Below are positions 23,133 to 32,174 of a DNA stretch of 37,208 nt, one piece after another. The notes below the pieces were generated by a model. That model saw only the letters and a list, made by a program, of their open reading frames with translations, was not told where the DNA came from and ran no database searches. Each line of letters opens with the position of its first letter. The stretch's first letter is position 1. Source of the DNA: Actinomycetota bacterium (lineage in GTDB: Bacteria; Actinomycetota; Actinomycetes; Mycobacteriales; CADCTP01); NCBI GenBank assembly GCA_046744115.1, contig JBKOXW010000052.1, forward strand, positions 1-37,208, given 5' to 3'. The translations under genes were made by a program, and so were the position numbers.

Positions 23133-23965
23133 CCGCCGCGATGCCGCGCGGGCTGCGCAAGGAGCTCATCGGGCTCGGCGGCGTGGTCGAGCGCAACGTC
23201 TACCTCACCCGCCGGTACATCTGGTGGGACGTCGCGTTCTTCGTCTGGACGGTGGCGAACACGCTCACGATCGTGTTCATCGCCAACGGCATCGAGGCGA
23301 CCGGCGGCACGATCGACGTCGCGCGGGCCACCACGTACCTGCTCGTCGGCGCGGTCATCTGGGCCTACCTCGGCATCATCTTCGAGTTCCTGACCGAGAC
23401 GGTGGCGTGGGAGCGCTGGGAAGGCACGATCGAGTACACGTTCATGGCGCCGCTGTCCCGGTTCACCCACCTCGCCGGCGCGGGCGCATTCGCGGTGCTG
23501 TACGGGCTGGTGCGGGCCGGGCTGCTGTTCGCCGTAGTCGCCGTCTTCTTCGACCTGAGCATGCCGAACGCGGACTTCCTGGCCGCGATCGTGGTGCTGC
23601 TCGTGGCGAGCGTGTCGTTCATCGGCATCGGCATGATGACGGCGGTGCTGCCGCTGATCTCGCCGGAGAAGGGCGCCCAGCTCGGTTTCGTCGCCCAGGG
23701 CGTGCTGCTCGTCGTGTCCGGCGTCTATTACCCGATCGACATCCTGCCGGGGTGGATGCAGAGCATCGCGGCCATCTCGCCGGCGACGTACGCCCTGGAC
23801 GGCATCCGCGCGGCCATCCTCGACGGCGCGGGCCTGACGTCGATGGGTCGCGAGCTGCTGCTGCTCGCGGTGATCGGCGCGGTGTGCATCCCGGCCGGGC
23901 TGGCGCTGTTCGCCGCGGGCGAGCGGTACGCCAAGCGCAACGGCAAGCTCAAGCGTTCGGGCTGA
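23129..23965 (+). CDS. ABC-2 type permease
   Basis: Multiple TM segments, ERWEGTIE..FMAP, SGVYYPI..LP.W; GTGA overlap with the ATPase gene. Confidence 0.9.
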   Translation: MTAAMPRGLRKELIGLGGVVERNVYLTRRYIWWDVAFFVWTVANTLTIVFIANGIEATGGTIDVARATTYLLVGAVIWAYLGIIFEFLTETVAWERWEGTIEYTFMAPLSRFTHLAGAGAFAVLYGLVRAGLLFAVVAVFFDLSMPNADFLAAIVVLLVASVSFIGIGMMTAVLPLISPEKGAQLGFVAQGVLLVVSGVYYPIDILPGWMQSIAAISPATYALDGIRAAILDGAGLTSMGRELLLLAVIGAVCIPAGLALFAAGERYAKRNGKLKRSG

Positions 23966-24449
23966 CCGAGCGGCCGGCGGCCCTGGTTGGCGTCGTGCGG
24001 GTTGGCCGGTGATGGCGGCGCGCGCGGATGAGGAGGGGTAGGCCGGCGGCAGCGGGGAGGAACCAGAACGTCGCGGGTGGGAGCAGGTTCCAGACCGGCA
24101 GGCGTGGGCCGTTGTCGACGTAGAACGCGGTGAGCATGGCCAGGTAGGACAGGCTCATGCCGGTGAGGTGGTGGGTCAGCCAGCCGTGCCAGCGGATGCG
24201 TCGGGCGGCGTAGCCGAAGCCGGCGGCGGCGAGCGCGGTAGCGCCCGGGAGGAGCAGGTACCAGGTGTGGGGTCGGGCGACGACGATACCGGCGGCGGTG
24301 CTGGCGAGGACGGTCACCGCGGCCAGGTAGATCCGTCCGGCTCGGGGGTGCCGGCCGGCGCGTTTGGGCGCGAGCATCGCGGTCGCGCCGGCGCCGACGG
24401 CGGTCAGTCCGGCCGCCACGTGCAGCCCGATGGCGAGGTGCAGCAGCAT
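23949..24449 (-). CDS. Membrane protein (DUF2306-like)
   Basis: HV.AG...K..GRH...GRIY, H..GM..SY.A.LTAF.V; several TM segments. Confidence 0.7.
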   Translation of the reverse strand: MLLHLAIGLHVAAGLTAVGAGATAMLAPKRAGRHPRAGRIYLAAVTVLASTAAGIVVARPHTWYLLLPGATALAAAGFGYAARRIRWHGWLTHHLTGMSLSYLAMLTAFYVDNGPRLPVWNLLPPATFWFLPAAAGLPLLIRARRHHRPTRTTPTRAAGRSVSPNA

Positions 24450-24453
24450 TGAC

Positions 24454-25344
24454 TCACCGCCGGGCGGTGTGCCGGTCGAGGAAGTCGGCGAGCAGCTCGG
24501 CCAGCCGGCCGGGTTGTTCCTCCATGAGCAGGTGCCCGGCGTCGGGAACGATCTCCACCCGTTCTGCGGTGGGAATGTCCTGAGCCAGCCTGTGCGCCCA
24601 TTCCGGACCGAAGTGCACGTCCCGCCCGCCCCAGACGATCATGGTGGGAGCGGAGATCCGGGTCAGTTCGCCGGCCAGCTCGGCCGTGTGCCTATGGTTG
24701 GCTGGGTCGAGCTGGGCGGCGAGGAATCGGCGAGTGCGGGCGCGGCGGCGGGAGTCGGCGAGGTTGGCCGCGACGTACCCGTCGACCAGCTCGTCGGTGA
24801 GCACTCTGGGGTCGTGCACCGCCTTCGCCGTGGCCAGCGCCCACCGGAACAGCCGGGGCCGGGACCAGGCCCAGAGCACGAACGGCCCCAGCGCCGGCAG
24901 CTGGGTGGCCCTGACGAACGGCCGTTCTTCGGCCGATGGCCAGTTGTCGTAGGCCTCGGCGTCGGTCAGCACCAGCGCGGTGAGCCGGTCGGGATGCTGG
25001 ACGGCGATCAGCTGCGCGACCGCGGCACCGTGGTCGTGGCCGACTACCGCGACCCGGTCCAGGTCGAGTCGGTCCAGCAGGCCCAGCACGGCCCGCACCT
25101 GAGCTGGCAACGTCCAGTCGGCGCCGGGTTGGGTCTCGGTGTCGCCCAGGCCGAGGAGATCCGGCGCCAGGCACCGGAACCGGGTGCTGAGGGGCGGGAT
25201 GATCCGCCGCCAGACGAACGAGGAGAACGGGCAGCCGTGCAGCAGCAGTACCGGCGGCCCGGCACCGGCCTCGAGGTAGGCGACATCCGCGTCGCCCACC
25301 CGGGCGCGCCGCCTGCTCGGCTCGGTGCGGTCAGCCGGTGGCAC
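24454..25344 (-). CDS. Alpha/beta hydrolase with Asp nucleophile (epoxide hydrolase/haloalkane dehalogenase-like)
   Basis: LLHGCP, APDLLGLG, VGHDHG, WGGRD, AGHL..EEQP. Confidence 0.88.
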   Translation of the reverse strand: MPPADRTEPSRRRARVGDADVAYLEAGAGPPVLLLHGCPFSSFVWRRIIPPLSTRFRCLAPDLLGLGDTETQPGADWTLPAQVRAVLGLLDRLDLDRVAVVGHDHGAAVAQLIAVQHPDRLTALVLTDAEAYDNWPSAEERPFVRATQLPALGPFVLWAWSRPRLFRWALATAKAVHDPRVLTDELVDGYVAANLADSRRRARTRRFLAAQLDPANHRHTAELAGELTRISAPTMIVWGGRDVHFGPEWAHRLAQDIPTAERVEIVPDAGHLLMEEQPGRLAELLADFLDRHTARR

Positions 25345-25723
25345 GGCCGGCAGCCGTTTCTTCCAGCAGGCACAGCGCCAGGTCCAGGACGCTGGGCACG
25401 CACGGGTCGGCTATCGAGTAGAAGATCCGGTTGCCGTGCCGGCGGGCCGTCACGATGCGCCGGTCGGCCAGCCGCTGCAGCTGGTTGGATACCGCCTGCG
25501 GGCGCATCCGCAGCTGCTCGGCCAAGTCCCCCACTCGCACCTCACCGCCGCGGTGCAGCGCGTGCAGCAGCCGGAGCCGGGTGTCGTTGCCGAGCACCTT
25601 GAACAGCCCGACCAGCTCGGCGGCCTGCGATGGCGTCAACAGCGGCCGGGTCGCCAGCGGCGGTTTGCCCGCCCTAGCGGCCGGCGACAACTCCGGCCCG
25701 CATCCGATGGGTTCCTCGACCAC
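25331..25723 (-). CDS. ArsR/SmtB family repressor
   Basis: FKVLGNDTRLRLL..L, VGDLA..L....AVSNQL..L, R.G..IFYS; Cys near both termini. Confidence 0.9.
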   Translation of the reverse strand: MVEEPIGCGPELSPAARAGKPPLATRPLLTPSQAAELVGLFKVLGNDTRLRLLHALHRGGEVRVGDLAEQLRMRPQAVSNQLQRLADRRIVTARRHGNRIFYSIADPCVPSVLDLALCLLEETAAGRATG

Positions 25724-25772: not shown

Positions 25773-25848
25773 CTAGTCGGCGTCGATGCTGTTCAGCAGG
25801 TCGAGCAGCTGGCTCGCGTTGCGCTGGGCGAGTCGGAGTAGCAGTTGT
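25773..25848 (-). pseudogene. Displaced original 3' end of the DUF72 paralog-2 gene (att junction)
   Basis: Translates as NCYSD(frameshift)AQRNASQLLDLLNSIDAD*, versus NCYSDYAQTNAQQLIGLLTSIDA in the 31275-32174 gene; 54 of 70 aligned nt identical by hand count. Confidence 0.85.
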
Positions 25849-26060
25849 CTCTCCCGCACCCACCGCTGTGCTCACCAGCTGGGATGCTGTCGTCGGCGAT
25901 CACCACCCGCAGCGGCCGGCGCTGCTCGCCCCACTGCACGTCGTGCACCAGCATCCGACCCAGCAAGCGTCGTCGACAACTAGGAGCGGTGCGGGGCCCG
26001 ACCGGAGGCGTTCCTGCCCAACAGGCCGTGTCCTGAGCCGGGCAGATAGATCAACCATCT

Positions 26061-26105
26061 TGGGCTCTCCGGGTAGGTCCGAACCAGCGACCCGACGATT
26101 AACAG
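26061..26105 (-). pseudogene. Degenerate 3' half of tRNA-Asn(GTT); att-site relic
   Basis: Minus strand CTGTTAA-TCGTC-GGGTC-GCTGGTTCGGACCTACCCGGAGAGCCCA: anticodon loop, T-loop GGTTCG and CCA end. No D arm or 5' half. Confidence 0.65.
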
Positions 26106-26159
26106 GCGGATGCGCAGGCCTGTCACAGCCATCACACACTGCCTGAGCAGGCATCGGGA

Positions 26160-26221
26160 CTGTCAACGCTGCCCGCCGTGCCACCCGGTGACGGCGATTC
26201 GTTGACAGATCCGTTGACAGA
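26160..26221. repeat. Integrase arm-type-like repeats: CGTTGACAGA x2 plus an inverted CTGTCAACG
   Basis: Direct copies at 26200-26209 and 26212-26221; inverted copy at 26160-26168. Confidence 0.55.
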
Positions 26222-26316
26222 CCGTCCACAGTGGATGATCTAGTGACACTACCCGCAGACTCATCACCGGCCCTTCTTCGCGCGTTCGCGGCACACACAG
26301 CTTGGGTCGCACTTCA

Positions 26317-26491
26317 TACGGAGGCGCCGGGTATCTCGCCGGAGGGGCTGCGCGCCAAGGTCGGAGCGGTTCACATTCCGCTCGGCGAGCTCGTCCAGGC
26401 CTTCCTCAATGCCGGCTTTCAACTCGAGCGCTTCGAGGAGGTCGGAGAGCGGCTGTACCCGCCGATCATTGTGCTGCAGGCCTGCCGGTGA
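26317..26491 (+). pseudogene. C-terminal fragment of a class I SAM methyltransferase-like protein
   Basis: GLRAKVGAVH.PL..LV.AF..AGF.LERFEE resembles methyltransferase C-termini; no motif I; GTGA-coupled to the HIT gene. Confidence 0.5.
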
Positions 26492-26985
26492 GGGCGCATC
26501 GAACACGTCGGGTGGACTTCGAGGCGATTCGCGCGCATCTCGGTGGGCGTTGCTTCATCTGCGAGATGCTCGCCAGCAATCCGGAGTTCCGCCACCATGT
26601 GGTCTACGAGGGCGAGCTCGCCGTCGCGTTCCACAACCGGTATCCAGTGCTGTACGGCTACGTGCTCGTCGCTCCAACGGAGCACCGCGAGCAAGTCAGT
26701 GGCGACTTCCGCCGCGACGAGTACCTCGCCCTGCAGGGAGTCGTCTACCTGGTCGGCGAGGCCGTCCGCCGGGTAATCCGAACTGAACGGCTCTACATCC
26801 TCAGCCTGGGAAGCCAGGACGGAAATCGGCACGTGCACCGGCACATTGCGCCGCTGCCGCCGGGCGTGCCGTTCGACCAGCAGCAGCTCGCGGTGCTCGA
26901 CTCGAACCGTGTTCTCGATCTCGGCGACGGCGAGATGGTCGACCTCGCGACGGAGCTGCGCCGCGCAATCAAAGAGTCGACGTGA
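26488..26985 (+). CDS. HIT family protein
   Basis: CFIC, YP..YG..LVAP..H, SLGSQ.GNRHVHRH histidine triad. Confidence 0.82.
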   Translation: MRAHRTRRVDFEAIRAHLGGRCFICEMLASNPEFRHHVVYEGELAVAFHNRYPVLYGYVLVAPTEHREQVSGDFRRDEYLALQGVVYLVGEAVRRVIRTERLYILSLGSQDGNRHVHRHIAPLPPGVPFDQQQLAVLDSNRVLDLGDGEMVDLATELRRAIKEST

Positions 26986-27054
26986 GACGGTCCTGACGTC
27001 GCGGAGCGCCGACGCAACCCGCGCGTGGCGCGGCACAAGGAACCACGATCGCGG

Positions 27055-27933
27055 TCAGCCTGTCGCGACCGCTCTACTCCAACGGTATGACCTGCTCGTA
27101 GAGGTGACCCGGAAGCCGGCGCCGACGTAGAGTGCGCGTGCCACGTCGGTGCCGTAGCCGACCTTCAGGCGGCGTGCTCCTCGCGTCGCCAGCCGCTCGA
27201 GACCCGCGGTGAGCATCGCACGGGCGAGACCGCGCCGCTGGTACGCATCCTCGACTCTCACCGGCTCCACCAGCCCGACCTCGGTTACGGGATCGAACCA
27301 GAAGAGCGCGTAGCCGGCAGTCTCGCCGTCCGCAGCCTCGACTGCGAGGTCGAGTGCCGGCTCGTAGAGCGAGCACTGCCGGAGGCGGGCCTCGATCCCT
27401 TCGCCGCTTCGTCGCATCATGGGGTGCGGCTTGGTCGTCTCCTGGGCGCGGTCGACGAGCACGAATCCTTCCGGCAGACCGGCCACGGCGGGCCGGTCCT
27501 GGGCATTCATCCATGTGATCCCCGACCGGTCGTCGCCGGCCGCGAAGCCGGCGCCTGCCAGCAGGCGAGCAAGCTCGAAGTCGTCGTCACGGGCAAACAC
27601 TTCGACCGCTTCGAGGCCCAAGGCGTCAATCGCCTCCACGGCGAGGGCCCAGAGAGTGGTGAGCGGAACGGTCGCGACACCGGGTACGACGATGGGATCG
27701 CACCACCACGCTCGACGCCAGTCCGTCAGTACGACGCCCGCAACGGGCCCCTCGTCATCGATCCAGAAGAGCTGGTCGATCGCGTCCGAGTGCCGAGGCG
27801 TGCGCCACCACCACTGTAGATCAGCGGCCTCCCAAACCCCCGCCTCTGCATCCGCCAGGCGAGCGCGCTGCAGGAGCTCCGTCGCGAGAGCAAGGTACTC
27901 GAGGCCCGATGCTTGCACCTCACGGATCGCCAC
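27055..27933 (-). CDS. GNAT family N-acetyltransferase
   Basis: GLVEPVRV...YQRRGLA, ARALY..AGF; TAGGAT-N6-GTG leaderless start. Confidence 0.85.
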   Translation of the reverse strand: MAIREVQASGLEYLALATELLQRARLADAEAGVWEAADLQWWWRTPRHSDAIDQLFWIDDEGPVAGVVLTDWRRAWWCDPIVVPGVATVPLTTLWALAVEAIDALGLEAVEVFARDDDFELARLLAGAGFAAGDDRSGITWMNAQDRPAVAGLPEGFVLVDRAQETTKPHPMMRRSGEGIEARLRQCSLYEPALDLAVEAADGETAGYALFWFDPVTEVGLVEPVRVEDAYQRRGLARAMLTAGLERLATRGARRLKVGYGTDVARALYVGAGFRVTSTSRSYRWSRAVATG

Positions 27934-28078
27934 GCGCCCATCCTAGAAACGGCAAGGCGCCGATCGGGGTGCAGTCTCGAGCCACGACCACCCACTGCAA
28001 GAAGACGCAAGAGCGAAAGACCGTGAAGCTCTCCACCGTGCGTACTCCGAGTCGGCCGGCACCTCTGCGCATCAGCGC

Positions 28079-28522
28079 TCACGTCTGGGCCGTGCGGCGA
28101 GCCACGTGAAGGATCGAGCACCAGTGACGCCGCACGCTTCGATCGTGACGCTGGCCGACCCGCTGTCGAATCTCCCGGTAGAGGTGCACTCTCTTCGCGT
28201 CGTCCATTGCGATGTGTCCCTAAAACGTGTTGAGCAGAGCGATGTACTCCTCTGCTGTGTATGACCTCTCCCAGACGTAGCGCCTGACCCTGACGTCTTC
28301 GAAGAGGCCGCTCGCCTCGATCTCTGCAGCCTCGTCGGGGATTTCCTCCGGCGGAGGCGGCGGCCACTCGCCCGGGTGACTATCGCCAATCGCGTCATAG
28401 ACCTCCTGGATCTCGGAGAAGAACGGATCGACGTCAGCGGGGAATGCATGCAAGGCGCTCCAGAACGCCAAGTGACGTTCGGGCCGCAGCAGCCGGTGCG
28501 CCTTCCGATACCGCATTGACGG
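28079..28522 (-). pseudogene. 5'-truncated class I methyltransferase with an in-frame TAG at 28220-28222
   Basis: HRLLRP..HLAFW...ASGLF.....RY.W...Y...EY..LLNTF*GHIAM...HVARRTAQT*; the frame continues after the stop. Confidence 0.7.
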
Positions 28523-28527
28523 CCTGT

Positions 28528-28677
28528 GAGATGTCGGGCACCGGAGAGATCGTGGACGGCCGAGTGCACCTGCATTGCGTATTCGGCCGGAAGGACAACA
28601 GCACGTTGTCAGGTCACTTGCACTGGGCTAACGTTTCAAACTGGTTCGTGAACGTGTACGTCGTTCCGTTGCGATGA
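28528..28677 (+). pseudogene. C-terminal fragment of a PPC/DUF296 domain protein
   Basis: EMSGTGEIVDGRVHLHCVFG......SGHL shows the HxH...GH metal-binding pattern. Confidence 0.65.
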
Positions 28678-28718
28678 CTACCCGCGAGGGGCCTCAGATC
28701 GCACGCGCCAGACTCGTC

Positions 28719-29140
28719 GCCGACGCTGACCACCGACAGGGGCACCGCGCGAAGCTGTCCGGTGCGCAGGGCGCCGGCTGTACACGCTGATCGTGCGCGC
28801 CGACCCGCGGCAGCTGGAGTTCCCGTTCGCGCTGTGGACCCGTGAGATGGTCCGCAAGCTGATCCGCCGCAAGTTCCGCGCCCGACCGGGCACCGGCCGC
28901 GCCCGCAACGCGTCCTTGCCGCCCTCCCGGTACCTCGCCAGCCACCCGTACAGGGTGCCGCGGGCCATCCCCGGCGCGGCCGCCACCGCCGCCGGATGCG
29001 CCCAGGCCTGGACCTGGTCACCCCGCGCAGCCGCAGCACCTCCAGCGTCTTGTGATCCAGCCTCCGGCCATCGTTGTCCCGCACACCGCAATCCAACAGA
29101 AACCGAAAGATCAAAATCAGCTAAGCAACGAACTCCTAAG
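28719..29140 (-). mobile_element. IS630-family transposase relic (left end and N-terminal HTH), frameshifted, with inverted internal segment 28750-28876
   Basis: Minus strand VRDNDGRRLDHKTLE.LRLR...YGWLARYREGG..AL.ARPVPGR; plus strand KLSG..RRLYTLI..DPRQL.F.FALWTR.MV..LIRRKF; minus strand VPLSVVSVG; TA at 29141-29142 at the element end. Confidence 0.8.
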
Positions 29141-29271
29141 TAAGGGACTTCCAGCGGTTGGCTCTTGGTGGGGATCGAGGTCGATCACGGTTCGGTGGGC
29201 AAATCCGCTCGATAAGACCGATCCGGGTGTGCCCGGTCACGACACGTCGAGATGACAAACGGGTCGGGTGG

Positions 29272-30171
29272 CTAGCCCGCTGCAGCCTTGATCTCAAAGC
29301 CCCTTTCCACGGCGTCGGCGAGCAGGCTGGCGCCCTCATACGGAGCGGAAAAGGCACAGTCCAACGCTTCGCCGGACTTGCGTTCCGCAGACGTGCCGAC
29401 GAGCGGGGCACCGATCGTCGCGGCAGTGGCCATGCACTCCGCTGCCTTGTCATACTCGGCGCATCCCTTCTGCGCCAGCTTGTAGACGGGCAGCAGCCGG
29501 TCCGTCGGTAACCCGAGCCGAGCCAGCTCGCGAGTACAGCCGCGCATCTCCTCCTCGATCGCGCGCATCTGCGCCGTGGTCACGCAGCACGGCAAGCCCA
29601 GGAACCAGTTACCATCCGTGTGCAATTTGTTGATGGCCTCCAACCAGACCAGCTCATCCCCAGTCATGGGTCGTCCCGACGCTGCGGCGGACGGCGTCAG
29701 GGAGGAGGACGCTGGCGCCGGGGTGTTCAGACTCGAGCTGGCGGTCGCCGCGGCAGTGGCCCCCTTGGCCGGATGCTTGCCGCTGATGATGAGGAAGGCC
29801 GCGCCGACGCCGAGCGCCGCGAGCAGAAGAAAGCCGCCTGCGGCGGCCAACATAAGGTTCCGCCTGTCATGCCGATCTCCCGACCGGGATCCCCCCGGAC
29901 CCTGGTATTCCCACGCTGACGGCTGTTCACGGCCCGGCGGCTGCCACTGCGGTGGGAACGGCTCCTGCCGCTGGGGCCGGTCGGGCTGCCACTGCGGCAG
30001 TGGTTCCTGCCGCTGGGGCCGGTCGGGTTGCCACTGCGGCAGTGGGTACGGTTCCCGCTGTTGAGGCTGGCCGGGCTGCTGCCAGCGCGGCTCTGCGAGC
30101 GGATCCTGCTGCCAGCGCGGCTCTGCGAGCGGATCCTGCTGCTGAGGCTGATCGGGCGGCTGCTCGGACAC
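29272..30171 (-). CDS. Single-pass membrane protein with Q/P/W-rich repetitive N-terminus and a 6-Cys C-terminal domain
   Basis: One hydrophobic TM segment (LMLAAAGGFLLLAALGVGAAFLII), S/T/A linker, AGGGG RBS-like sequence. Confidence 0.7.
   Translation of the reverse strand: MSEQPPDQPQQQDPLAEPRWQQDPLAEPRWQQPGQPQQREPYPLPQWQPDRPQRQEPLPQWQPDRPQRQEPFPPQWQPPGREQPSAWEYQGPGGSRSGDRHDRRNLMLAAAGGFLLLAALGVGAAFLIISGKHPAKGATAAATASSSLNTPAPASSSLTPSAAASGRPMTGDELVWLEAINKLHTDGNWFLGLPCCVTTAQMRAIEEEMRGCTRELARLGLPTDRLLPVYKLAQKGCAEYDKAAECMATAATIGAPLVGTSAERKSGEALDCAFSAPYEGASLLADAVERGFEIKAAAG
29941..30046. repeat. 42-45-bp coding tandem repeat (PLPQWQPDRPQRQE)
   Basis: Units begin at 29941, 29986 and 30028. Confidence 0.85.
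30076..30142. repeat. Perfect 30-bp coding tandem repeat (QQDPLAEPRW) x2.2
   Basis: CTGCTGCCAGCGCGGCTCTGCGAGCGGATC at 30076 and 30106. Confidence 0.9.
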
Positions 30172-30263
30172 GCTCTACCCCCTGCTTCTCCGCAGCGACG
30201 TTACACCACGTAATGAATTCGTGACGGAAACCTTGGCTATCGCTTGACCCGATACTTGGTGGT

Positions 30264-30395
30264 GACCAGCGATGCCTCGCCATGGGCACACGCCTGTGGT
30301 GCGGCTGTCGGACTGTGGCCAGCAGTCCGGGTGCAGCCCGGCCGCGTGCCAGCTCCGGCACGGCGTCCATACTCCTCGATCCGGCAGGCCACCCG
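30264..30395 (+). pseudogene. Possible VOC/glyoxalase C-terminal remnant
   Basis: QRCLAMGTR ... ILLDPAGHP resembles the VOC terminal motif LxDPAGHPF. Confidence 0.35.
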
Positions 30396-30609
30396 TCTGC
30401 CCCTATCTCGAGTAGCCGTCTACGAGGCCCTCGCCAGACGGCGACCGCGTACGGCCTACGGGACATCCGAACTTCGGCAGTCGGTCGCCTGGACCGCACC
30501 GGTATCGTCCGTCGGCGCGCACTGATCACCAGGCGTGTCAGCCTCCCGGTGGCCCGCCGCCCAACACTCGGGCGTCCCGGCCGGCGCGCTTACCGCGGAT
30601 CTTGACTTC

Positions 30610-30678
30610 ATCGACGTCGAGGTCACCGAGCTGGTCGGCATCTACAGCAATCCCCGTCACGTCGTCGGGTTCTCCGAC
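30610..30678 (+). pseudogene. Internal fragment of a NUDIX hydrolase
   Basis: IDVEVTELVGIYSNPRHVVGFSD resembles the post-NUDIX-box segment of an actinobacterial NUDIX subfamily. Confidence 0.5.
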
Positions 30679-30747
30679 CGGACGTGCTGCACGCCGACTG
30701 CAGGCGGGCTTGAGCTGAACAGCTCCGCACGGGAGCCTGCGACGTGC

Positions 30748-30780
30748 GAATGCGGCAGTGATCCACAGAGCGATATTCAT
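30748..30780 (-). pseudogene. N-terminal stub of a DoxX-like membrane protein
   Basis: MNIALWITAAF with an upstream AGGA RBS; similarity stops after 11 codons. Confidence 0.4.
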
Positions 30781-30987
30781 GATGTGACTGCGCTTTCCTG
30801 TGAGAGTGCAGCGACACTTGTGATCTACCGGCTGCGCGTCACTGCGAGTCGCGGCAGCCACCGCGTAATCGTGCTGGATCGACGGCACTCGGGTGCCGGT
30901 CGGGTCGGAGGGTCAGCCTGTCCAGTAATCCTCGATCATCTCGGGATCGGAGGAGCTGATCGGCATGCGGGAGATCTATGTATGCCG

Positions 30988-31240
30988 CTAGACCGTGTCT
31001 CCGAGGGTCAGCCGGCGGCGTTCGGCGCGGGCACGTTCGGCGGCGTTCGCGGAGGCATATCGGTCGAGCATCTGCCGGCTCGACCAGCCAGCCGCCCGCA
31101 TGAGGCCGCCCTCGGAGCCGCCTTCACGCAGCCAGGCGTCGGCGAAGAAGTGCCGCAGCTGGTGGGGGTTTAGCCGAACGCCGGCCTGCTCGGCGCGCCG
31201 GACGAGCATCGCGGCAAGCGCCTCGTCGCCGACCGGCCCG
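30988..31240 (-). pseudogene. C-terminal fragment of a tyrosine recombinase/integrase
   Basis: HQLRHFFA (HxxR), LMRAAGW (W in place of His-II), SRQMLDRY (catalytic Tyr). Arg-I and the N-terminal domains are missing. Confidence 0.85.
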
Positions 31241-31274
31241 CGGTTGCGTTCTATCACAACTGGGAGCGTCGTGC

Positions 31275-32174
31275 TCAAGCGTGCGACTCGTTATCCATCG
31301 CATCTATGCTGGTCAGTAGGCCGATTAGCTGCTGGGCGTTGGTCTGCGCGTAGTCGGAATAGCAGTTGTTCATCAGGACATGGGTCTCCTTGGCCTGCGC
31401 GGCCAGCTCCCGCAGCTTCGGCGCCCACTGGCGCAGCTCGTCCTCGGAGTACAGGTAGCCGAACCGCTCGTAGATGTCCCGGCTGTTCCACTTGTCGCTG
31501 TGGCCGTGGAAGCGCATGACGGCCAGGTCGGCCGTCGCGGCCAGCACCGGCGGCACCGAGCTCGGGTAGCCCTGCGGCATGTCCACGCAGACGTACGGCA
31601 CCGCGTACGAGGTCAGGAAGTCCAGGGTCTCGGCCCGGTTGTCCTCGCTGAGCCAGGTCTTGTTGCGGAACTCCACGCAGACCGGCACCGGCTCGCAGCG
31701 GCGCTTGCACTCCAGGATGTAGTTCTTGTTCCGCTTGCCGATCGGGAACCACTGCGGGAACTGGAACAGCACCGCGCCGAGCTTGCCCGCCTGGTACAGG
31801 GGGTCGAGCGCACCAAGGAAGCGCTCCCACACCGCGTCGACGGTGGACTGGTCCAGGTCCTTGACATAGAGGTTCTTCGTCGCGCCCTCGGGCCGCAGGT
31901 CCTTGTAGAGCGCGGTCGGCCGGGTCGGATGCTGGGTGAGCAGGGAGAACGCCTTGATGTTGAACGTGAAGCCGTCCGGCGTGCGCTGCGCCCACAGCTC
32001 GCTGTTCCGCTCGTTCGGCGGGGTGTAGTACGTCGAGTCGACCTCAACGAGCGGAAACTGCTTCGCGTAGTAGCCCAGCCGCTCCTCGGCCGACGTCGCA
32101 TCCTCGGGGTACCACCCGGAGGCGAGCAGCGTCTTGTCCGTCCACGACGCCGTGCCAACCTTGAGGTCTCCCAC
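31275..32174 (-). CDS. DUF72 family protein, paralog 2 (integration target)
   Basis: VGTASWTD, VEVDSTYY, F.IKAF..LT.H, LG.VLFQFP, EFRN..W, RFHG, YLYS..EL, MNNC; GGAGG RBS. Confidence 0.92.
   Translation of the reverse strand: MGDLKVGTASWTDKTLLASGWYPEDATSAEERLGYYAKQFPLVEVDSTYYTPPNERNSELWAQRTPDGFTFNIKAFSLLTQHPTRPTALYKDLRPEGATKNLYVKDLDQSTVDAVWERFLGALDPLYQAGKLGAVLFQFPQWFPIGKRNKNYILECKRRCEPVPVCVEFRNKTWLSEDNRAETLDFLTSYAVPYVCVDMPQGYPSSVPPVLAATADLAVMRFHGHSDKWNSRDIYERFGYLYSEDELRQWAPKLRELAAQAKETHVLMNNCYSDYAQTNAQQLIGLLTSIDAMDNESHA

Follow-up and report, generated by a model that had tools for sequence, protein, structure and literature searches.

The window analysed here, a 37,208-nucleotide (nt) stretch of an Actinomycetota genome (contig JBKOXW010000052.1), carries a gene of the DUF72 family whose 3′ end occurs twice. 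The DNA between the two copies (25839-31369) is probably a decayed integrative element that was inserted at a short core sequence in the DUF72 gene and supplied a replacement gene end. There is a good likelihood that the exchange took place at the core itself, with the element bringing the tail that is now attached to the gene. This model is preferred because the third-position G+C (GC3) breaks at the core, a 296-nt block in the related genome G002 runs unbroken through the tail, the tails of the sister species G008 and G007 appear to be swapped, and the tails and gene bodies of other relatives are similarly mismatched.

The duplicated end of the DUF72 gene

Both copies are read from the minus strand. 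The right one forms the end of an open DUF72 gene of 299 codons (31275-32174, minus strand; PF01904, E value 1.4e-60), the only full-length DUF72 gene in its own genome, and the encoded protein ends in NNCYSDYAQTNAQQLIGLLTSIDAMDNESHA before the stop codon. The left copy (25773-25848) is the counterpart of the last 25 DUF72 codons and is located about 5.5 kb downstream in the direction of the gene. Its translation begins with NCYSD and continues, after a 1-nt deletion, with AQRNASQLLDLLNSIDAD and a stop codon at 25773-25775. When 25780-25848 is aligned with 31300-31369, 56 of 71 columns match, including 17 of the final 18 nt. The local alignment score of the two ends is 36. Among 2931 random 70-nt pieces of the window, the scores averaged 8.3 (standard deviation 1.9) and peaked at 17. 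The repeat is thus genuine and much stronger than chance would give. Both copies open with ACAACTGCTA, and no similarity is present 5′ of that boundary.

The body of the DUF72 gene is native, because 21 of 29 loci from relatives retain the same gene upstream of it (some of these loci overlap one place, and one of them, L006, is from the unpublished genome G022) and because 259 of its 269 codons (0.963) end in G or C. In the attached tail, this holds for 23 of 30 codons (Fisher p 5e-4); the lowest 30-codon window of the body has a GC3 of 0.90, so none is as low as the tail. The displaced tail, read from an intact twin on another contig of the same genome (C99), has a GC3 of 23/23. The cargo genes between the copies show values of 0.79-0.85 and the genes past the far copy 0.89-0.975, and the overall G+C content is 62-70% between the two copies versus 72-80% outside. 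The same pattern was observed in G008 (body 258/269, attached tail 20/30, displaced tail 32/37). Therefore, the composition breaks at the core; the gene-attached tail is foreign-looking and the far tail is host-like. We rejected the possibility that the whole DUF72 gene is foreign DNA, which its G+C content of 66-68% might suggest, in view of the GC3 of the body and the conserved synteny; the low G+C content is due to the amino-acid content. The attached tail retains the pattern NNCYxxYAQxNAxxL, the residues of which are conserved across 120 homologues, and the open reading frame (ORF) of the target remains open over its 299 codons.

The initial annotation, which was made from the sequence alone, had counted 54 of 70 matching nt by hand (with the same 17 of 18 at the end), had described the left copy as NCYSD with a 1-nt deletion and host-like codons, and had pointed to the codons TAT, CTA, ATA and GAT as atypical for the end of the intact gene. 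These observations were confirmed, and the four codons do occur in the attached copy. Its proposal of a crossover near the Asn-Asn-Cys-Tyr codons, with a recoded tail borne by the element, is supported by the codon usage, which in the window as well as in G008 changes precisely at the core. The features of the two junctions are as follows.

31370-32174, minus strand: native DUF72 body, codons 1 to about 268 (PF01904; conserved upstream neighbour; GC3 259/269)
31360-31369, minus strand: putative gene-side junction (attL) with the core ACAACTGCTA, Asn-Asn-Cys-Tyr codons (start of the identity between the copies; same boundary in G002 and G008)
31275-31359, minus strand: replacement DUF72 tail and stop codon, probably supplied by the element (GC3 23/30; NNCYxxYAQxNAxxL conserved)
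25839-25848, minus strand: putative far junction (attR) with the second core ACAACTGCTA (sequence comparison)
25773-25838, minus strand: displaced, probably original DUF72 tail with a 1-nt deletion and a TAG stop codon (twin in C99 at 70/71 nt, GC3 23/23)

These features suggest the following course of events. A tyrosine integrase of about 292 residues, similar to the Xer recombinases, would have recombined a circular element with the chromosome at the short core ACAACTGCTA. The core corresponds to the conserved Asn-Asn-Cys-Tyr codons, about 30 codons before the native end of DUF72, and the element's core would have led straight into a version of the last 30 codons that belonged to the element. 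After insertion, the gene body would read into the tail of the element (31275-31359) and the reading frame would stay open, while the original tail would be pushed 5.5 kb away (25773-25838), where it would since have acquired its frameshift. Later decay may have removed the first ~205 codons of the integrase and reduced much of the cargo to fragments, so that the island would no longer be self-mobile. In relatives, the same site recurs repeatedly as a target, and arrays of units without an integrase, each ending in a conserved arm and a DUF72 tail, appear to have built up by accretion. The repeat, its shared boundary, the codon-usage break, the placement of the integrase homologues and the recurrence in relatives are direct observations, from which we infer the recombination itself, the exact crossover within the core and the identity of the host's tail.

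The integrase remnant and its clade

The ORF that directly follows the DUF72 stop codon (30988-31278, minus strand, 96 residues) matches only positions 98-170 of the 172-position tyrosine integrase profile PF00589 (E value 1.5e-7), which agrees with the integrase fragment that the initial annotation had recognized immediately downstream of the gene. Residues 10-96 are 78% identical to the C-terminus (residues 206-292) of an intact 292-residue integrase from the relative G005 (G005:C23), whose gene begins 71 nt beyond the stop codon of DUF72 and has the same orientation. The G005 integrase consists of an N-terminal SAM-like domain (PF02899) and a catalytic domain (PF00589, E value 8e-24, profile positions 6-170 of 172), in which the catalytic motifs GLRRSE, GKGRK, HQLRH and RY are readable. 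Compared with G005, the window has a deletion that begins a short distance past the tail and reaches about codon 205 of the integrase. The fragment retains only HQLRH (HxxR), GW and the RY tyrosine. Since the first catalytic arginine and the lysine are gone, the remnant is, as judged from its motifs, dead. The truncation of the integrase also indicates that the island is a fossil; nothing suggests present-day mobility.

Structure matches of the integrase include 4a8e (E value 2e-17), 5hxy (XerA), 1a0p (XerD) and 5vfz (Gp33, E value 8e-8). XerA, XerC, XerD and gp33 of mycobacteriophage Brujita share with the G005 integrase the layout of a SAM-like and a catalytic domain without an arm-binding domain. 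However, the gene of the G005-type integrase adjoins a gene end, whereas the Xer proteins act at dif. The integrase is neither XerC nor XerD according to the respective models (146.6 bits versus a cut-off of 335.15 and 124.8 versus 329.6 bits), and it scores 41.4 bits with the integron-integrase model TIGR02249, the cut-off of which is 265.

A frameshifted copy of the integrase occurs in G011:C25 at the same position downstream of DUF72 and on the same strand. Among the 61 relatives compared, which include no genome of the window's genus, the copies of G005 and G011:C25 are the only homologues above 48% identity. When one genome per species was scanned, 2 of 43 integrase loci (G005 and G011) adjoined DUF72; the other 41, with at most 52% identity and mostly from Nocardia, did not. 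A metagenome scan yielded one 82%-identical integrase piece on a 1062-nt contig (L081) without gene context. The window fragment is a member of a narrow clade that is seen only directly downstream of DUF72. It had been suggested at the outset that homologues of the integrase should lie downstream of DUF72 genes, and this expectation was borne out for all three close members with context (the window, G005:C23 and G011:C25), always on the same strand, and for 0 of the 41 distant ones.

Displaced tails in relatives and on a second contig

The core and the next five codons were used as a search pattern in all 16 genomes of the family. Multiple copies were found in 4 of the 16, namely the own genome, G002, G008 and G001. 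The own genome is represented under this pattern by the gene copy and the C99 copy, since the frameshifted left copy escapes it. Outside the family, 22 of 131 sampled genomes of the order match the pattern, each in a single copy (22/22).

G002 contains the gene copy and three displaced tails, 7.7, 10.2 and 17.9 kb downstream. They form an 18-kb array of three units in tandem (G002:C11:222445-240497; L037, L105), and a remnant consisting of an arm only is present 49 kb further on (173088-173176). The cargo of the units includes a 2071-residue protein and its truncated duplicate, a TOTE-type primase fused to a helicase, a helix-turn-helix (HTH)-IrrE pair and transposases; an integrase was not found in these units. 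G008 has a single displaced tail in a 1067-nt unit without an integrase (G008:C2; L010 506-1572), which carries a toxin (phrog_36779) and an Arc/CopG-like protein. All displaced tails in both genomes start with AACTGCTA directly after GAC and are preceded by a conserved arm. The arm consists of AGTCGCGATARC, a few nt, CGCACAGCGCT, about 30 nt, GCACAGCGCATAGC, about 12 nt and CAGAC, followed by the displaced tail. None of 2000 shuffles reached the score observed between the G008 and G002 arms. Of 401 genomes of the order, 2 contain the first two arm motifs together, and all four occurrences lie just upstream of a displaced tail. The arms are conserved between the species, and their cargo is unrelated. 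In the window, GCACAGCGG is found at the same distance, with GAGAC before the core.

The sequence identities of tails and bodies also differ from each other. In G002, the gene-attached tail and the next copy share a 98.3%-identical block of 296 nt that starts at the core, spans the tail and continues into the cargo. Because this block is unbroken, the tail belongs with the downstream cargo. The DUF72 bodies of G008 and its sister G007 are 94.9% identical, and their attached tails match at 59 of 75 positions. The displaced tail of G008, in turn, is 88.4% identical to the attached tail of G007 over 129 nt. Further mismatches were observed between G006 and G008 (body 0.936, tail 53/75) and between G011c7 and G007 (body 0.863, tail 73/75). 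Duplicated DUF72 ends in relatives, which the initial annotation had proposed to look for, are thus present in G002 (gene plus three) and G008 (gene plus one) with the same ACAACTGCTA start, and the sister comparison also favours its reading, in that the tail displaced in G008 is of the type still attached in G007.

One may ask whether any site-specific event took place at all. The left copy could be what remains of a paralogue or the product of a tandem duplication or an illegitimate rearrangement; the integrase fragment would then be an unrelated relic. The island is indeed rich in fragments, and in G001 the 3′ part of DUF72 is directly duplicated over 275 nt with 98.9% identity (G001:C1:689613-690892; L036 3614-4892). 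This resembles a plain duplication, its boundary is not the core, and the two matches of the search pattern in G001 both belong to it. However, the same 10-nt boundary recurs in three genomes and coincides with the break in codon usage, members of the integrase clade occur at this position only, the own genome contains just one full DUF72 gene, and outside the family the motif occurs once in each of the 22 genomes having it. We therefore give this explanation hardly any credence. The first DUF72 copy of G001 contains two in-frame TGA codons. As separate observations, in G023 (L017) and G052 (L018), which belong to other families, the main DUF72 gene is directly followed by a distant paralogue of 26-27% identity.

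The arrays could also be explained by an integron-like platform, in which a resident Xer-like recombinase beside DUF72 captures cassettes of arm and tail without an integrase, the window being a degraded platform. Such a platform would account for the integrase-less units, 1067 nt long in G008 and three in tandem in G002, for arms that remain conserved from species to species despite unrelated cargo, and for the fact that in G005, G011 and the window the integrase directly follows the first tail. However, the genomes with arrays have no close homologue of the integrase and those with the integrase (G005 and G011) show no array. The integrase remnant of the window is gene-proximal and part of the low-GC3 island, which is what DNA brought by an element would show, and the score with the integron-integrase model is far below its cut-off. 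In addition, the known accretion of integrase-less derivatives explains the arrays. A resident platform therefore appears very unlikely to us, and we return to the insertion of an element at the core.

A second context of the displaced tail is found in the own genome, which is a metagenome assembly of 347 contigs with 79% completeness.

C99:23552-25702 (L004 7553-9703): pSAM2-type element and DUF72 tail (479-residue integrase, RepSA, Tra)

The tail copy in C99 is identical to the far copy of the window at 70 of 71 nt and has no frameshift. On its 3′ side, 8 nt off, lies a 35-nt copy (94%) of window 23936-23970, where the end of an ABC-permease gene overlaps the next gene. This end is separated from the displaced tail by three genes in the window and by 8 nt in C99. 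The three genes (23949-25723, minus strand) encode a 166-residue membrane protein, an alpha/beta hydrolase similar to haloalkane dehalogenase and an ArsR/MarR-type regulator. The ABC genes are located about 235 kb from DUF72 in genus g3, and the 35-nt piece in C99 is followed by a stretch that resembles, by eye, a C-terminal transposase fragment.

On the 5′ side of the C99 tail, from CTGCTAC onwards, 600 nt of small ORFs are followed by genes for an integrase (PF00589, E value 2e-23), RepSA (PF20199, E value 1e-155) and an FtsK-type protein (PF01580, FtsK/SpoIIIE, E value 6e-19) in the usual order. The element has the genes that define a pSAM2-type actinomycete integrative and conjugative element (AICE). 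Elements of the pSAM2 type usually adjoin tRNA gene ends. C99 shares with them RepSA, the FtsK/SpoIIIE transfer protein and the order with the integrase, but a DUF72 tail is present 600 nt past the integrase instead of a tRNA gene. No tRNA target was found within 18 kb, and no second att repeat was found in the contig or the genome. The C99 integrase is 28% identical to the 292-residue Xer-like integrase over 167 residues; its nearest homologue (56%, G055) adjoins a tRNA gene end, and none of the five loci of its homologues lies beside a DUF72 tail. Of the two junctions, just the one on the integrase side, at the DUF72 tail, is visible; the contig ends 10.5 kb away.

The C99 tail adjoins host DNA on its 3′ side and a different element on its 5′ side, which supports the displaced tail as host DNA and the core as the junction. 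In the simplest reading, the far-type tail would be host DNA that is abutted by different elements at almost the same nucleotide in two strains or places. There are hints that two unrelated integrases use the same DUF72 core. In a broader version of this idea, the core would be a landing pad shared by at least two unrelated integrases (of 292 and 479 residues) and by very small integrase-less cassettes, down to 1 kb in size and each consisting of an arm, cargo and a substitute gene end, which are moved in trans and exchanged between species. We regard this extension as rather doubtful. If true, the landing pad would be a counterpart of the integron that is anchored at a gene end and stocks defence and toxin-antitoxin genes.

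Several observations weigh against insertion at the core. An empty site, that is, a DUF72 gene ending in NSIDAD beside an ArsR-type gene, was not found among the relatives, none of which is of the same genus; the closest analogy, G008 compared with G007, comes from another genus. G007 and G012 are not strictly empty, as a 76% homologue of the toxin-antitoxin cargo of G008 follows right after the tail; this toxin-antitoxin-like pair has no second tail copy. The nearest DUF72 protein, P0002 (97% identical), ends in NSIDAMDNEPRA (SIDAMDNEPRA), and an 84%-identical protein ends in SMDAMGGESRT; both ends are of the attached type, while the displaced-type end AQRNASQLLDLLNSIDAD was found in 0 of the best 120 homologues. 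The soil contigs X1 and X2 (~96% identical) carry the attached-type tail and part from the window only after the stop codon, at 31251 and 31257, which also fits a crossover downstream of the gene. The arm of the window is only weakly similar to that of G002, with 56 of 2000 shuffles reaching its score. Close homologues of the integrase are lacking in G002 and G008, neither a circular form nor an excision product was seen, and C99 and the window may originate from different strains, as the genome was assembled from a metagenome.

Some of these points could be accommodated if strand exchange occurred at the motif pair GCACAGCGCT / AGTCGCGATAACA, a short way past the end of DUF72. The attached tail would then be native and the far copy a pseudo-tail carried by the element. 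The motif pair occurs between the tail and the integrase in G005, after the two most distal copies of G002 and within the element arm, and the breaks of the two soil contigs fall within a weak match to it. The attached type in the 97%-identical protein and in these contigs, together with the absence of the displaced type from the best 120 homologues, would be expected from such an exchange, and a direct repeat by itself cannot locate the crossover. However, GC3 drops at the core and not past the stop codon in the window and G008, and the far copies are host-like. The G002 block is unbroken from the core via the tail into the cargo, the far copy of G008 matches the attached tail of its sister species, and the far-type tail in C99 adjoins host DNA on its 3′ side. 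Moreover, the break at 31251 is explained by the window's own integrase deletion junction. An exchange past the stop codon is therefore unlikely, although it deserves more weight than a resident platform. No convincing dyad symmetry was seen by eye at the core or at the motif pair.

With insertion at the core, the relatives with an attached-type tail probably share an old insertion rather than lack one. P0002 differs from the window at 4 of 31 residues in the tail and at 5 of 268 in the body, which suits a separate history of the tail. Contig X2 lacks window 30229-31256 apart from a 22-nt remnant; because this remnant is kept, X2 must stem from the same island through additional deletion. The two public soil runs cover small shares of the window stretch (0.08 and 0.06). 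No join from about 25848 to about 31360 is listed for them, but their contigs are patchy and derive from relatives, so this absence is uninformative. Breaks in the soil runs at 31360, 31383 and 31402 were considered as alternative junctions and rejected, as they fall in a conserved stretch common to the DUF72 genes of other species. In phage and plasmid collections, the DUF72 protein matched whole genes only, with at most 49% identity, and no element-borne tails. The provirus Pro-Nvie1 of Nitrososphaera (FR725450.1 1-1240, L107) was also rejected as a parallel case, since the host DUF72 gene at its edge points away and this is not a 3′-end insertion.

Island contents, known systems and significance

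The remaining features of the island and its flank are listed from the gene side to the far side.

31248-31274, minus strand: weak, diverged match to the motif pair GCACAGCGCT / AGTCGCGATAACA, uncertain (by-eye comparison with G005; not significant alone)
30988-31251, minus strand: C-terminal integrase remnant, 87 homologous residues, first ~205 codons deleted (78% to residues 206-292 of the G005 integrase)
30172-30987, no strand assigned: non-coding or fragmentary island stretch of no family (ORF 30535-30720 without a Pfam match)
29272-30171, minus strand: cargo, Pro/Gln-rich repeat protein with a membrane segment (no Pfam, NCBIfam or PHROG match; GC3 0.80)
28678-29091, minus strand: fragment with transposase-type N-terminal HTH domains (HTH_28, HTH_29, E values 1e-6 to 2e-6)
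28220-28516, minus strand: 98-residue ORF of no family, possibly a gene fragment (no Pfam or NCBIfam match)
27055-27933, minus strand: cargo, GNAT acetyltransferase (PF00583, E value 1.5e-9; GC3 0.79)
26500-26985, plus strand: cargo, HIT-domain protein (PF01230, E value 4e-7; GC3 0.82)
25849-25890, minus strand: putative element arm by the far junction, GCACAGCGG and GAGAC before the core (resembles the G002 arm, with weak support)
25331-25723, minus strand: host flank, ArsR/MarR-type regulator downstream of the displaced tail (HTH_5, MarR_2, HTH_20; GC3 0.90)

The gene for the Pro/Gln-rich protein contains 42-nt and 30-nt tandem repeats (29939-30172), and the soil contigs X1 and X2 are each short of one 42-nt unit (29986 joined to 30029). 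Two stretches near the far junction, 26097-26167 and 26244-26317, recur elsewhere in the own genome (96% in C114 and 89% in C24, respectively). The latter holds a 17-codon Cys-rich ORF on the minus strand (beginning MKCDPSCVC), which is open in C24 too, and three CTGTCAAC/GTTGACAG motifs lie between the two stretches at 26160-26225.

The principle of gene-end replacement is best compared with icd of Escherichia coli, where phage 21 and the element e14 insert in the 3′ part of the gene and carry a substitute 3′ end. As at the DUF72 island, the substitute end has diverged, the gene stays functional, and a pseudo-end remains at the far side. The DUF72 island differs in its target, its host group (uncultured soil actinobacteria), its small 292-residue Xer-like integrase and its fossil state. 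In Streptococcus thermophilus, the integrative and conjugative elements ICESt1 and ICESt3 and their integrase-less relatives, the cis-mobilizable elements (CIME), are located at the 3′ end of fda, where accretion occurs. Excerpts from the literature also describe dusA-specific integrases, and Salmonella genomic island 1 (SGI1) is described in an excerpt of PMC8409611 as inserting at the 3′ end of trmE. The insertion at the 3′ end of a housekeeping-type gene is common to these elements and the DUF72 island, and tandem att-bounded units, some of them without an integrase, are seen as in G002 and G008. Unlike ICESt1 and CIME, however, no conjugation or mobilisation genes were found in the window island, and the units of its relatives carry defence-type or toxin-antitoxin cargo.

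The initial annotation knew of no DUF72 gene described as an attB site. This statement did not hold, because yecE of E. coli, which is annotated as DUF72, is an attachment site of Shiga toxin (Stx) prophages with a 21-bp att sequence, as stated in an excerpt of 10.1101/2020.11.04.367953. At least 80% of yecE is whole in 5138 of 5426 E. coli genomes. In genomes where it is split, similarity picks up again at about nt 76-86 of its 819 nt, in the 5′ part. YecE is 30% identical to the DUF72 protein of the window over 69 residues. The Stx/lambdoid prophages thus likewise use a DUF72-family gene as the attachment site, but the break is in the 5′ part and not at the 3′ end. A literature search on DUF72 and integrases gave no actinobacterial 3′-end site among the matches listed. 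What is new here is the position of the target in the 3′ end of DUF72, the narrow integrase clade and the busy local hotspot; the principle is long known.

The finding therefore brings no conceptual surprise, as gene-end replacement is long established, but it adds a precisely bounded attachment site of about 10 nt and a compact integrase clade of uncultured soil actinobacteria to the elements that repair the protein genes they enter. An integrase of 292 residues whose natural target is defined and whose arms are short and conserved could be tried as a tool for site-specific integration in high-GC bacteria. For the family, the insertion explains why the C-termini of DUF72 proteins depart from the gene tree. 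The locus is an insertion hotspot, and in the relatives it has gathered the defence-type genes of a TOTE primase-helicase and an HTH-IrrE pair along with a toxin-antitoxin pair.

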